From positions 1 through 33,554 of IMG/VR virus record IMGVR_UViG_2648501235_000001: a DNA stretch of 33,554 nt, one strand, 5' to 3'. The notes beneath the pieces were generated by a model. That model was not told where the DNA came from, made no database searches, and worked only from the letters and a program-made list of their open reading frames with translations. A program made the position numbers and the translations under genes. The stretch is from a virus (lineage: Duplodnaviria; Heunggongvirae; Uroviricota; Caudoviricetes). The number at the start of each line of letters is the position of its first letter. The first letter of the stretch is position 1. Below, in pieces: positions 1 to 12,789 of this stretch.

Positions 1-98
1 TGGGTCGTCATGTGGGATGGCTGGTTCAGACTTCAGGATATGGTTGAGGGTTACCTGGTGATGAAGTCTCTTGATCAGGAGATCTGATCAAGAGACAG
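1..98 (+). mobile_element. Right end of an IS50-family (IS4 superfamily) insertion sequence: 3' end of the transposase ORF (1-87, truncated by the window edge) and 19-bp terminal inverted repeat (80-98)
   Basis: 80-98 is AGATCTGATCAAGAGACAG, the reverse complement of the IS50 inside-end 19-mer CTGTCTCTTGATCAGATCT. Frame 1 reads ...WDGWFRLQDMVEGYLVMKSLDQEI with the stop (85-87) inside the repeat, as in IS50 tnp. The residues differ from the canonical Tn5 Tnp C-terminus as I recall it (...LDGFLAAKDLMAQGIKI), so this looks like a diverged relative. Confidence 0.6.
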
Positions 99-119
99 CC
101 CGAGGAAGGGGCCTTAAAT

Positions 120-200
120 AAGGTAAGTTCCATATTTAAAATTCCTTTAATTATCAACAAATTACCATGAGCAGGTCATTGTTAGTCAAAATAAAATCAT
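120..200. other. attL: Prophage attachment-site P' arm with Int arm-type binding sites (attL side); core expected near 100-118
   Basis: CAGGTCATTGTTAGTCAAAATAAAATCATTTGTTGATTTC (172-211) closely parallels lambda P' arm CAGGTCACTATCAGTCAAAATAAAATCATTATTTGATTTC, directly abutting the int 3' end. Core not identifiable without attR/attB. Confidence 0.5.
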
Positions 201-1270
201 TTGTTGATTTCAATTTTGTCCCATTCTCTCCCTCGGCTGTCCCTATACCGCGCCGCCATTGAATCTGATTTATGTCCGAGAAGGCGTTGAGCAAACTTAT
301 CGCCAATCTGATTGCGGTATAGTCTCGCCGACAGGCTACGCAGTTCATGGAATGTTGGCGGGTCTCCATCAAATGAGAGTCCAGATGCATTTCTCGCCTT
401 TGTAAAATACTTCGATACTGTTTTCGGGGAAAGTGGTTCGTGATGCGTTGATGCAATTATAGTGTCACTGCCGCTGGCCTCCCTGCATTTCTGTAGTATA
501 TCAGCCAATGAGATATTGAGCGCGTCAATCGTTAGCGTCAGCGGAATGGCGAGCTTAGCCCCTGTTTTACCCTGTTCAATGTGAAGATGGTTGTCGTTTA
601 TGTCTGACCATTTCATTTTGCACAAATCGCCGACTCTCTGACCTGTAACGACGGCCAAATCCATCGCAAGCCTCAGCCAGATTGGGAGAGGTTCGGCTGC
701 ATGGTGAATCGCGACATACTCATTAGCTGTCAGCCTTGAGCGCCTTACTTCTGGCTTTGCTGTGCGGGTTGCTGTTACCGGATTCGTAGCCACATGCCCC
801 TCGGCTATTGCCTCACGAAAAACGTCAACAAGGGTTGACCTGATTAATTTTGCGGAAGCCGCTTTACCTTCTGCTACGTAGGTGTTTAGCATTGCTGCCA
901 CCTCTTTCGTTGATATGTCAGCGAGCGGTTTGTCCGGCAATTTTCTTCGGATTGCCCTGATTTTGCTGGCGTAGTCGAGTAGAGTTTTCGGCCTGATACC
1001 CCTCTCGCTGAGGATTGTTTCATATCGGTCAAGCCACGCATGAAGAGTGATTGCGTCAGCGCCTTTAATTCTGTCTATCAGTGACTCACGCCTGCTCCCG
1101 GATAGCAACTCAATATTGGCCTGTATTGCTTCAGTGATTGCTATCCTCCTGTCTCGGCCTAATCCAAACTCTTTACCCGTCCTTGGGTCCCTGTAGCAGT
1201 AATATCCATTGTTTCTTATATAAAGGTTAGGGGGTAAATCCCGGCGCTCATGACTTTGCCTTCTTCCCAT
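197..1270 (-). CDS. int: Tyrosine integrase, lambda Int family
   Basis: 357 aa, ATG at 1270. N-terminus MGRRQSHERRDLPPNLYIRNNGYYCYRDPRTGKEFGLG and C-terminal HELRSLSARLY...LLGHKSD...Y match lambda Int; central and C-terminal substitutions suggest a different core specificity. Confidence 0.95.
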   Translation of the reverse strand: MGRRQSHERRDLPPNLYIRNNGYYCYRDPRTGKEFGLGRDRRIAITEAIQANIELLSGSRRESLIDRIKGADAITLHAWLDRYETILSERGIRPKTLLDYASKIRAIRRKLPDKPLADISTKEVAAMLNTYVAEGKAASAKLIRSTLVDVFREAIAEGHVATNPVTATRTAKPEVRRSRLTANEYVAIHHAAEPLPIWLRLAMDLAVVTGQRVGDLCKMKWSDINDNHLHIEQGKTGAKLAIPLTLTIDALNISLADILQKCREASGSDTIIASTHHEPLSPKTVSKYFTKARNASGLSFDGDPPTFHELRSLSARLYRNQIGDKFAQRLLGHKSDSMAARYRDSRGREWDKIEINK

Positions 1271-6703: not shown

Positions 6704-7012
6704 TTACCTCGCTGTCAGTTGTTTTGATTTCCGGTAGCCTGCCGCGTAAAGAGCTACGTTTGGCAGGCAAATACTTCCACTGCATTCATCTGCCTTCTTG
6801 CAGCGAAGGCTTCCGAGTGATATTGCTTTTTCAGAAAGGCTTAACCGCTTTCTCGGGTCTTCCTGAACAGGTTCCTCACTGTCTGTGCCGAAGATCGAAT
6901 CGATGATGTTGCAGATGGAATCACGCTCGATGGCCAGCTTTCTGCGCCGCTCATGACGGCGAGTTTTGGCATTTCCTGCAAATGTTGATTTTCCGTACAC
7001 GATTACCGTCAT
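6704..7012 (-). CDS. N: Antitermination protein N, P22 gene-24 type
   Basis: ATG at 7012 with GAGGA SD. Contains the arginine-rich motif GNAKTRRHERRRKLAIER, which I recall as the P22 N boxB-binding peptide. The six-frame ORF start at 7096 lies 5' of the nutL boxA/boxB (7131-7164), so the shorter product is the real one. Confidence 0.8.
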   Translation of the reverse strand: MTVIVYGKSTFAGNAKTRRHERRRKLAIERDSICNIIDSIFGTDSEEPVQEDPRKRLSLSEKAISLGSLRCKKADECSGSICLPNVALYAAGYRKSKQLTAR

Positions 7013-7130
7013 GATGTTTTCCTCATGTGAAATGGCTTTGGTGGTGATGCGCCAGATGCTGATCTTCTGGTTGCTGTCGTTACTGCTGCAATTCACATCA
7101 CCCCAAACCCATCTCGTTTGGTATCTGTTC

Positions 7131-7454: not shown

Positions 7455-8354
7455 TTATTTGATTATTTCTTTTATAAAGACTTCTTTCGGTTGGTATTTT
7501 TTATCTGATGATTTGAGCTGGTACGTTATTGTTATATCAGCACGTACAGCAAATTTACCTGCAAAATCTGATGGGTTTACGTTGGGGCCAAGAACCATAT
7601 TTACTCTTCGATCTATTAATCCAGGGATAACAGCGGCCCAACCTTTCTCTGGATTGTCGAGGTCTAATGCACGGATTTCAACATCAACATCAAAATGATC
7701 CTGAGTATATGACTCTGGTGTGAAGACAACTTCAGTTGGGGCTTTTTTAATGGTTTCAGCGGGAATGGTCACTGTACCACCCCCTGTACCTATGACCATC
7801 GTAGATCCTTCGTCTGCCCTAGCTGGGGCAAGCGTCTTAATGGAACTTTTGGCAAGAGTCTTCTTATTGGTTACCGTGCTTTCTATGATTGCTTGAAGAC
7901 GGTCAGGTGAAATATTAGCCTCACCGGCACCAATATTGATGATTGTATTGTTATTTGCTTCAAAGTGGGAGGTGTTGCTTGGAGCCATAGCCTTAGTTGC
8001 TAGAACTAAGCCATATCCAACCAGACCAATAACAACAGCACCAACGAGAGCGTTTCTCATTTTCCCATTTCCGATCTTTGCATGAGCGCCAGCAAGAAAC
8101 TTGTCCATTTCTTCTTGGCTACCAAAGAGGAGTTTAATAACAATATCTTCATAAAGGCTTCCTGCTTCTAATCGCGCAACATGCACCGATATATCAAGGA
8201 TATTAGCCCCTGTCAGTTCCTGCAAAACACCTTCTGATTGTTTTGCGATGGCCTCCCACCCTTGAAGGGAGGTAATCACATCTTTGATGCTTACAGGTTC
8301 TTTAGTTGAATAATATATGTTTTCGGTAAAGGTTAAAGATAATTCTTGGGACAT
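7455..8354 (-). CDS. Uncharacterised single-pass membrane protein (299 aa) in the rexAB slot; putative lysogen-expressed exclusion/defence moron
   Basis: ATG at 8354 with GAGGG SD. Same strand as cI, 129 bp downstream of its stop, and followed by its own terminator. One central hydrophobic segment ALVGAVVIGLVGYGLVLATKAM. About 37% GC in a sampled 60-nt stretch versus about 55% in a late-region stretch. No family recognised. Confidence 0.6.
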   Translation of the reverse strand: MSQELSLTFTENIYYSTKEPVSIKDVITSLQGWEAIAKQSEGVLQELTGANILDISVHVARLEAGSLYEDIVIKLLFGSQEEMDKFLAGAHAKIGNGKMRNALVGAVVIGLVGYGLVLATKAMAPSNTSHFEANNNTIINIGAGEANISPDRLQAIIESTVTNKKTLAKSSIKTLAPARADEGSTMVIGTGGGTVTIPAETIKKAPTEVVFTPESYTQDHFDVDVEIRALDLDNPEKGWAAVIPGLIDRRVNMVLGPNVNPSDFAGKFAVRADITITYQLKSSDKKYQPKEVFIKEIIK

Positions 8355-8483: not shown

Positions 8484-9191
8484 TCATGAACTTTTCAGCC
8501 ATTCCCTGGCCTCGATGTCATCTAGGTGGCGAGATTGCTTCAGAATACCAGCTACATACTCCACCTTTGCTACTTGATGATAAGGCAACGTTATTGGCCT
8601 GTGGTCTTGGTTGATGCTTGTAAATTGGTATTCTCCGTCTCTGTCATAGCCAAGAACCTTGATCATGTTGTGCCCTTCAATGGTTCTGACAAACACCTCA
8701 TCACCTGGGAATACTTTGGTGTTAGGCTCAATGAGTACATATTCTCCTGATTTTATTCTGGGCCACATGCTGTCTCCTTTTACACGAAGACCAAAGGCAT
8801 CTGGATCATCGCTATAAATCTTGAGCCACCCATCGCGCTCTTCGGTCATCTCGATGGCACCATCAACACCAAGAATTGCCTCACCAACCACGCGCACTAA
8901 CCCTTTTTTTAATTTGCCAACAATTGAAAAAGTATCTTCATCATTCGCTCCATTTAACGAAGTGCCGTGCTGAAGCCAAACAACATCAACGTTTAGAAAT
9001 TTCGCAAGCGCATTCATTTTTTCCTGGCGTGGTAAAGACTCAGCATTAAACCATTTGCTAACGCCTTTGGACGAAAGAGAAAGGGCACGGGCTATGGCCA
9101 TTCCCCTACCATGTTCATCAAGACCAGCTTCTTTACAGGCTTGCGCTAGCCGCTGGGCGAATTCTTTGCGCACTTTTTCATTCTGAACCAT
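8484..9191 (-). CDS. cI: CI-type prophage repressor (HTH N-domain + LexA/S24-like autocleavage C-domain)
   Basis: 235 aa, ATG at 9191 with no SD, consistent with a leaderless pRM transcript as in lambda. C-domain has GDSMWP (Ser) and a downstream Lys (MIKVL) typical of S24 peptidases. Not lambda, 434 or P22 c2 by sequence. Confidence 0.85.
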   Translation of the reverse strand: MVQNEKVRKEFAQRLAQACKEAGLDEHGRGMAIARALSLSSKGVSKWFNAESLPRQEKMNALAKFLNVDVVWLQHGTSLNGANDEDTFSIVGKLKKGLVRVVGEAILGVDGAIEMTEERDGWLKIYSDDPDAFGLRVKGDSMWPRIKSGEYVLIEPNTKVFPGDEVFVRTIEGHNMIKVLGYDRDGEYQFTSINQDHRPITLPYHQVAKVEYVAGILKQSRHLDDIEAREWLKSS

Positions 9192-12348: not shown

Positions 12349-12789
12349 ATGAAAAAACTAACCTTTGAAATTCGATCTCCAGCACATCAGCAAAACGCTA
12401 TTCACGCGGTACAGCAAATTCTTCCAGACCCAACCAAACCAATCGTAGTAACCATTCAGGAACGCAACCGCAGCTTAGACCAGAATCGAAAGCTTTGGGC
12501 TTGCCTTGGTGACGTCTCTCGTCAGGTTGAATGGCATGGGCGCTGGCTGGATGCAGAAAGCTGGAAGTGTGTGTTTACCGCAGCATTAAAGCAGCAGGAC
12601 GTTGTTCCTAACCTTGCCGGGAATGGCTTTGTGGTAATAGGCCAGTCAACCAGCAGGATGCGTGTAAGCGAATTTGCGGAGCTATTAGAGCTTATACAGG
12701 CATTCGGTACAGAGCGTGGCGTTAAGTGGTCAGACGAAGCGCGACTGGCTCTGGAGTGGAAAGCAAGATGGGGAGACAGGGCGGCATGA
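12349..12789 (+). CDS. ninB: NinB recombination protein
   Basis: [56 protein letters not shown]... matches lambda NinB as recalled; ATG at 12349 with GGAG-rich SD. The six-frame ORF start at 12331 is TTG. Confidence 0.9.

Follow-up and report, generated by a model that had tools for sequence, protein, structure and literature searches.

The stretch of DNA analyzed here, called the window (33,554 nucleotides), begins inside an insertion sequence (IS), crosses a short piece of host DNA and then enters, through the left attachment site (attL), a mosaic lambdoid prophage that it follows up to a tail tape-measure gene. The prophage looks intact: the window holds genes for N, cI, O, a DnaB-like helicase, Q, a terminase, a portal and, at its end, the tape measure. 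Its first 106 positions include the following features:

Positions 1-87, + strand: last 28 codons and stop codon (85-87) of an ISEc13 transposase gene (from the translation and 99% identity to annotated ISEc13 copies)
Positions 66-96: perfect 13-bp palindrome with arms at 66-78 (GTCTCTTGATCAG) and 84-96 (CTGATCAAGAGAC) and a loop at 79-83 (predicted fold, -21.6 kcal/mol)
Positions 80-98, - strand: right terminal inverted repeat (IRR) of ISEc13, reading CTGTCTCTTGATCAGATCT from outside (exact, unique 19-mer match)
Positions 99-106: right copy of the 8-bp target-site duplication, CCCGAGGA (the 1550-bp IS of strains DCE7 and A25 is flanked by it left and right)

The IS end in the window

The 19-mer AGATCTGATCAAGAGACAG has a single, mismatch-free occurrence in the window, on the + strand at 80-98, the position that the preliminary description of this DNA had given. 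It was never found in 100 dinucleotide-preserving shuffles of the window, even with three mismatches allowed (0/100). Read on the other strand, it is CTGTCTCTTGATCAGATCT, the inside end of Tn5/IS50. Frame 1 of positions 1-84 encodes WVVMWDGWFRLQDMVEGYLVMKSLDQEI, which aligns to the C-terminus of the Tn5 transposase (Tnp; ...WGALWEGWEALQSKLDGFLAAKDL) yet is diverged from it, and the stop codon at 85-87 falls inside the terminal repeat, in agreement with the transposase 3′ end noticed earlier. The palindrome at 66-96 consists of the IS terminus and an inward-facing copy of the same terminus, and the tnp stop codon begins directly behind its loop, where the 3′ arm starts. This structure could stabilize the 3′ end of the tnp mRNA or serve as a decoy for transposase binding. 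An Rfam scan of window 1-400 gave only chance matches to this palindrome and none to SIB_RNA, of whose repeat (sib/ibs, see below) the window retains only 25 bp.

The IS terminus is at window 98, the base at which the complete IS of DCE7 and of A25 also stops. Since the E. coli matches on the prophage side all begin at window 99, the junction between IS and flank was placed at 98|99. Only 98 bp of the IS thus lie inside the window, the remainder being to its left.

Identity of the IS

Positions 1-98 are 99% identical to copies annotated in RefSeq as "IS4-like element ISEc13 family transposase", and the name ISEc13 used here rests on the annotation of these copies. An end of this type is present in 2464 of the 5426 complete E. 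coli genomes, on chromosomes as well as plasmids. At the orthologous junction of DCE7 and A25, the IS is 1550 bp long and carries an intact ORF of 457 aa. Its left repeat (IRL), CTGTCTCTTATACACAAAT, shares 17 of its 19 positions with the outside end of IS50; it is known from these orthologous copies, its place in the present element being to the left of the window. The left copy of the duplication also lies outside the window and, as for the completeness of the IS, we infer it from DCE7 and A25. Five independent ISEc13 sites of E. coli show 8-bp duplications. The element of the window shares with annotated ISEc13 its terminus, the C-terminus of its transposase, the 1550-bp element at the orthologous junction and, judging from DCE7 and A25, the 8-bp duplication, and it differs from the DCE7 and A25 copies by one synonymous SNP at window position 6 and by nothing substantive otherwise.

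A solo IS end or truncated remnant, as opposed to the end of a complete ISEc13, is an improbable reading of these 98 bp. Such a remnant could be suspected because the window begins inside the element and because defective copies exist elsewhere (a 50-bp deletion and a frameshift in MS1494, a copy devoid of duplication on pMAR2). However, DCE7 (NZ_CP090611.1), which has the identical IS-attL junction and is 99.8% identical to the window over positions 1-1101, carries the complete 1550-bp IS with both ends, the 457-aa ORF and the 8-bp duplication.

The 457-aa orthologue aligns end to end with Tn5 Tnp structures (E=6e-84), 184 of the 436 aligned residues being identical (~42%), which is far from the essential identity expected of canonical IS50 or of laboratory Tn5. 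The full transposase of A25, identical in DCE7, has the Pfam domains Tnp_DNA_bind and DDE_Tnp_1 above cut-off and Dimer_Tnp_Tn5 slightly below it (24.1 bits, cut-off 26.7), and it scores 514 bits against NCBIfam NF033590 (cut-off 160). The Tn5-type DDE architecture and the CTGTCTCTT...-type terminal repeats at both ends are those of the ISEc13/IS50 subgroup. The level of Tnp identity, the Tn5-type domains and the NF033590 score therefore indicate a natural element of the IS50 subgroup and not a laboratory Tn5, as the preliminary description had already proposed from the terminal codons and as the RefSeq ISEc13 copies now bear out. On these comparisons, window 1-98 is assigned to the right end of ISEc13, a natural and already catalogued IS of E. 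coli that belongs to the IS4 family and the IS50 subgroup.

ISEc13 resembles IS50/Tn5 by its right end, which is the IS50 inside end with its two GATC sites, by the domain layout of Tnp and by the position of the stop codon inside the terminal repeat. It differs from IS50/Tn5 by the length of its target duplication (8 bp compared to 9 bp) and by the 13-bp perfect palindrome at its end. The 19-mer is also identical to the IS50 inside end of mini-Tn5 vectors, and CTGTCTCTTGATCAGATCT stands next to the aphII promoter, followed by ...TGATCC, in a published Tn5 primer (PMC9241598). Nevertheless, an insertion of laboratory Tn5 or mini-Tn5 is hardly conceivable here, given the protein divergence and the abundance of the end sequence in natural E. 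coli genomes. Furthermore, the adjoining coding end reads ...GATCAGGAGATCT (D Q E I stop) in the window compared to ...GGATCAAGATCT (G I K I stop) in canonical IS50 (taken from the primer of PMC9241598).

The host site

In strain D1, whose attL is 99.4% identical to that of the window and which lacks the IS, the host DNA continues leftward as ...gggaaagcccct|cccgaggaaggggccttaaataagg. This is a sib/ibs (QUAD) repeat located between mdtA and yegL. An intact neighboring QUAD copy of D1 matches the Rfam SIB_RNA model with 140 bits (gathering score 56), and ibs CDSs are annotated beside the attB of A25 and the attR of MFDS1001074. The host part of the window is limited to one segment:

Positions 99-116: host DNA, comprising the right half of the GC-rich QUAD hairpin and the B core site (identical in prophage-free A25 and IS-free D1)

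The IS splits the GC-rich hairpin gcccctCCCGAGGAaggggc (predicted fold of the uninterrupted sequence, gcccctcccgaggaaggggc, -12.9 kcal/mol). Seen on the ibs strand, the hairpin is directly upstream of the ibs ribosome-binding site. On the opposite strand, it comes just after the SIB_RNA model has ended, the final 3′ bases of this model being complementary to AATAAGG. Since a simple terminator scan returned no call for the QUAD hairpin, this hairpin is described here only as a conserved GC-rich hairpin and not as the Sib terminator.

Strains differ in how many sib/ibs repeats separate mdtA from yegL (compared at L003 3380-5130 versus L001 5560-6030 and L008), with one in A25 and DCE7 and two or three in D1, FDAARGOS_144 and MFDS1001074. 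The left half of the single, IS-split repeat of A25 and DCE7 resembles the mdtA-proximal copy and its right half the att-bearing copy. This hybrid copy and the varying number of repeats suggest recombination between repeats.

The attachment site

The recombination site and the phage arm that follows it were delimited as follows:

Positions 110-116: GGCCTTA, the B core-type site for Int in attL (aligned with attB, attR and the C site of HK022, CATCCTTT)
Positions 117-123: 7-bp overlap (crossover) AATAAGG, which holds the host/prophage boundary (sole block common to attL, attR and attB)
Positions 124-130: C′ core-type site TAAGTTC, the first phage DNA (HK022 attP has TAAGTTG at the same position)
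Positions 152-164: IHF H′-like site TATCAACAAATTA (homology to the P′ arm of HK022 attP)
Positions 173-202: three tandem arm-type Int sites, P′1-P′3, AGGTCATTGT, TAGTCAAAAT and AAAATCATTT (near-identity to the P′ arm of HK022 attP)

The four attachment sites compared are:

attL (window): GGCCTTA-AATAAGG-TAAGTTC
attR (MFDS1001074, a prophage remnant at the same site; L016 44236-44262): CATCCTTT-AATAAGG-AAAGGGT, then an ibs ORF
attB (prophage-free strain A25, L003): GGCCTTA-AATAAGG-AAAGGGT
attP (HK022; L005 370-400): CATCCTTT-AGGTGAA-TAAGTTG

The attR of the window prophage lies beyond the window, which stops in the tail tape-measure gene, and a search of the window with the core and the ibs flank found no attR; the core was consequently defined with the attR of the MFDS1001074 remnant. 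Strain D1 was also considered as a source of attR and was dropped: its prophage is rearranged and truncated beside gsp genes, and MFDS1001074 was taken for this reason.

In the attL, attR and attB of these three strains, the flanks of AATAAGG swap partners as expected for B-O-P′ and P-O-B′ structures. The sequences part at 124 and differ at 116, thus bounding the overlap at 117-123, and homology to the phage database begins at window 124. Since the attB of HK022 has 21 bp in a 7+7+7 layout (PMC4846993), an overlap at 117-123 sets the core at 110-130. Window 124-215 aligns with the P′ arm of HK022 attP, including its putative IHF site and its three arm-type sites. Setting the P′ arm in register with lambda attP (anchors TTATCAA at 151-157 and CAGGTCA at 172-178) likewise puts the overlap center at 120. 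The segment 152-164 presumably corresponds to the H′ site of lambda, judging from its position and from the IHF consensus WATCAANNNNTTR, and the names P′1-P′3 follow from homology with lambda.

The end of the IS at 98 is separated by 18 bp from the overlap, by 11 bp from the 21-bp core and by 74 bp from the first P′ site. The preliminary description was therefore right about the vicinity of the IS and the P′ arm, and its estimates (about 20-70 bp, sites from 172 onward) are replaced by the measured 74 bp and a first site at 173. Its proposal that the IS ends where the att core should be does not hold, since the core is intact at 110-130. Furthermore, the comparison of 99-120 with attR that it advocated, carried out with the attR of MFDS1001074, finds the IS outside the prophage and a normal attL core, which is the outcome that it had itself named as speaking against its reading.

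Integrase, excisionase and integration specificity

Two genes follow the P′ arm:

Positions 197-1270, - strand: full-length gene of an HK022-type integrase (Int) of 357 aa (342/357 residues identical to HK022 Int, no gaps)
Positions 1248-1466, - strand: excisionase (Xis) gene, 72 aa (Pfam Exc, E=4e-40)

Int has the Pfam domains Arm-DNA-bind_1, SAM-like and Phage_integrase, hence both the arm-binding and the tyrosine recombinase domain of a heterobivalent integrase of the lambda/HK022 type. The recombination system is very close to that of HK022: the integrases are 96% identical and of equal length, Xis is present, the P′ arms are nearly identical, and they have the phage core sites in common (C, CATCCTTT, as found in the attR of MFDS1001074; C′, TAAGTT, as found in the window). 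It differs by the overlap (AATAAGG compared to AGGTGAA) and by attB: HK022 and Stx1a phages integrate in the torS-torT region, the present prophage in a sib/ibs QUAD repeat of the mdtA-yegL interval. Hence, the prophage does not have the integration specificity of HK022 proper (overlap AGGTGAA, attB in torS-torT), and the different overlap combined with HK022-like core sites would account for the use of the QUAD site. Outside this system, the prophage is lambda-like and not HK022-like.

The attP expected for this prophage was not found among the sequenced phages of the phage collection, where the close int matches all start at 124 and are of the HK022/torS-torT type. A literature search on prophage integration at ibs/mdtA, conducted outside ISfinder and subscription journals, found no description of this attB. 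Other QUAD copies also hold AATAAGG and, as judged from this motif, could be alternative attB sites.

Distribution of the IS and of the prophage among strains

This attL is present in 81 of the 5426 complete E. coli genomes, 80 times without the IS and with it in DCE7 only; the combination of IS and attL is therefore limited to DCE7 and the window. Conversely, in A25 the IS stops at the identical base, and beyond it come an attB that is intact and then the ibs gene. A25 and DCE7 are 100% identical over the 5039 bp that comprise the left flank and the IS, and they diverge exactly at the equivalent of window 124. This identity argues that both strains share a single ancestral insertion of the IS. 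If the IS was inherited by descent, at least one Int-mediated event would have occurred with the IS already present, this event being either an integration into an attB flanked by the IS or an excision in the line of A25. In principle, the IS copies of A25 and of the window lineage could be independent insertions, which is conceivable since the hairpin is a hot spot of ISEc13 (see below); the case for a recombination by Int beside the IS would then be weaker. The 5-kb identity of A25 and DCE7 speaks against such separate insertions. In this lineage, the IS probably came first and the prophage second.

These data also bear on the idea, put forward in the preliminary description, that the IS inserted at the boundary of prophage and host or signals a prophage end that is rearranged or possibly immobilized. 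If the IS had inserted in the attL junction itself or had come with a rearrangement, the prophage end would be damaged and the prophage perhaps locked in. Indeed, a mere 18 bp separate the IS terminus from the crossover, the hairpin interrupted by the IS is host DNA that normally borders attB, and the prophage of DCE7, the closest relative sharing this junction, is heavily degraded. However, the B, O, C′, H′ and P′1-3 sites are all there and match the attL copies devoid of IS, the IS lies outside the 21-bp core, and the same insertion stands beside an empty and intact attB in A25. Furthermore, the degradation in DCE7 is due to IS30, IS3 and ISEc21 well inside the prophage, and Int and Xis are intact in the window. 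We thus consider damage to the junction improbable; the comparison of attL, attR and attB rather indicates that the IS lies in host DNA next to a complete attL. The IS would leave recombination by Int and Xis unimpaired, and by analogy with work on the minimal attB of lambda and HK022, the 11 bp of native DNA left between the IS and the 21-bp core should be sufficient.

Target choice of ISEc13

The insertion in the att-bearing repeat is not the only one in a QUAD hairpin. In FDAARGOS_144, the ibsA copy next to yegL carries ISEc13 at the same hairpin position with the duplication CCCGGAGA on both sides. Since this duplication reproduces the sequence variant proper to the ibsA copy, the insertion results from a separate transposition event. 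The presence of this local variant on both sides of the IS also led us to reject, for the ibsA copy, gene conversion between QUAD repeats as the route by which the IS spread. ISEc13 is found at the same hairpin position in the ibsE copy between yqiK and hldE of TUM14697 and Rb-23 and, in the opposite orientation, in a QUAD hairpin of Escherichia whittamii. Judging from these junctions, ISEc13 appears to have hit at least three or four QUAD copies independently.

Further copies of ISEc13 in E. coli likewise interrupt C-rich/G-rich palindromes at their apex and have 8-bp duplications:

ybaY / MGMT-family gene: left arm accctct, duplication CCGCCCGG, right arm agagggt
mog / satP: left arm atcccc, duplication CCGAGCGG, right arm ggggat
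MS1494: left arm ctcccc, duplication CTATCAGG, right arm gggggc

A scan of one genome per species retrieved 48 further ends in Rahnella, Serratia, Budvicia, Phytobacter, Scandinavium, Salmonella and other genera. Among 41 distinct right flanks, GGG is found at +7 to +16 in 38, compared to 8% of random positions of the same loci, and G at +13 in 39, compared to 26% of random positions. At least eight of the 41 are BoxC/TMECO repeats (CCCTCTCCC-loop-GGGAGAGGGTTAGGGTGAGGGG) split at the loop, the published motif sequences being CCCTCTCCC-loop-GGGAGAGGG (PMC4666352). At the targets examined (window 99-112; L003 3482-3489/5040-5047, L007, L008, L010, L012, L013 and L017-L064), the insertion point of ISEc13 and its close relatives is nearly always the apex of a C-rich/G-rich palindrome, with an 8-bp duplication; these palindromes include three or four different QUAD hairpins of sib/ibs, BoxC/TMECO triplex-motif repeats and hairpins that separate convergent genes. 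Our literature searches on ISEc13, which included an IS4-family review and were conducted outside ISfinder and subscription journals, yielded nothing on the target choice of ISEc13 or of the IS50 subgroup.

Tn5 has only a weak target preference (A-GNTYWRANC-T), whereas ISEc13, according to the flanks compared here, seems to favor strongly the apex of GC-rich palindromes. A related behavior is that of IS1397 and ISKpn1, which insert in the loops of REP/BIME. Like them, ISEc13 would insert at the apex of short palindromic intergenic repeats, but the transposases belong to different families (IS3 compared to IS4/IS50 for ISEc13) and the target repeats differ too.

Accessory genes and related remnants

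The accessory ORFs of the prophage were searched with PADLOC and Pfam, which revealed nothing notable. Two of these ORFs can be mentioned:

Positions 2092-2817, - strand: 241-aa ORF of the accessory region, downstream of xis, whose N-terminus resembles a signal sequence (weak match to Pfam LprI, lysozyme inhibitor)
Positions 7455-8354, - strand: 299-aa ORF at the position of rexAB in lambda (match to phrog_4506 only, a PHROG of unknown function)

The 241-aa ORF may be a moron gene. The 299-aa ORF sits between the genes of the N antiterminator (6704-7096) and of a cI-like repressor (8484-9191), and it has no match in Pfam or PADLOC.

Two related prophages are reduced to remnants. In DCE7 (L002 5040-10081), int is truncated past the equivalent of window 1101 and ~11.7 kb are replaced by IS3, IS30 and ISEc21, homology to the window resuming at 12778. 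The remnant of MFDS1001074 (L016 44651-48551), integrated in the same attB, carries the type III effector genes espJ, nleG and cif beside attR; this attB is therefore also used by lambdoid phages that carry effectors.

Discussion

Taken as a whole, our results make it very probable that the window begins with an ISEc13 located in host DNA, beyond the limits of both the prophage and the minimal recombination site, beside an intact HK022-type attL. ISEc13 would have inserted into the apex of the hairpin of a QUAD repeat, a type I toxin-antitoxin repeat located between mdtA and yegL, generating the 8-bp duplication CCCGAGGA. A mosaic lambdoid phage would have integrated at AATAAGG, by the ibs ribosome-binding region of the same QUAD repeat, in an event independent of the IS insertion. 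On the far side of the prophage, attR would then read ...CATCCTTT-AATAAGG-AAAGGGTCATGATG, followed by the ibs ORF. The adjacency of the two elements would result from their preference for different features of the same conserved repeat of ~45 bp, the hairpin apex for the IS and the ibs ribosome-binding region for the phage. As far as sequence comparison can tell, this is an ordinary neighborhood of two mobile elements and not a damaged prophage end.

Two broader proposals can be made, both tentatively, as we hold them to be possible but rather less than even in probability. The first is that ISEc13 and its close relatives in Enterobacterales are structure- or sequence-specific elements that generate 8-bp duplications at the apices of C-rich/G-rich palindromes. 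The second is that the prophage would be a natural case in which an HK022-type Int was re-targeted to a toxin-antitoxin repeat present in several copies, with nothing changed but the 7-bp overlap.

In itself, the finding adds one more copy of a catalogued IS, beside and not inside a lambdoid attachment site, with no sign of a crippled prophage; two hot spots in one conserved repeat account for the neighboring elements. ISEc13-like elements could provide a tractable system that is related to Tn5 and has a strong target selectivity. An HK022-type Int whose specificity would be shifted only by a change of the overlap would be a natural example relevant to the use of integrases as tools for genome engineering.
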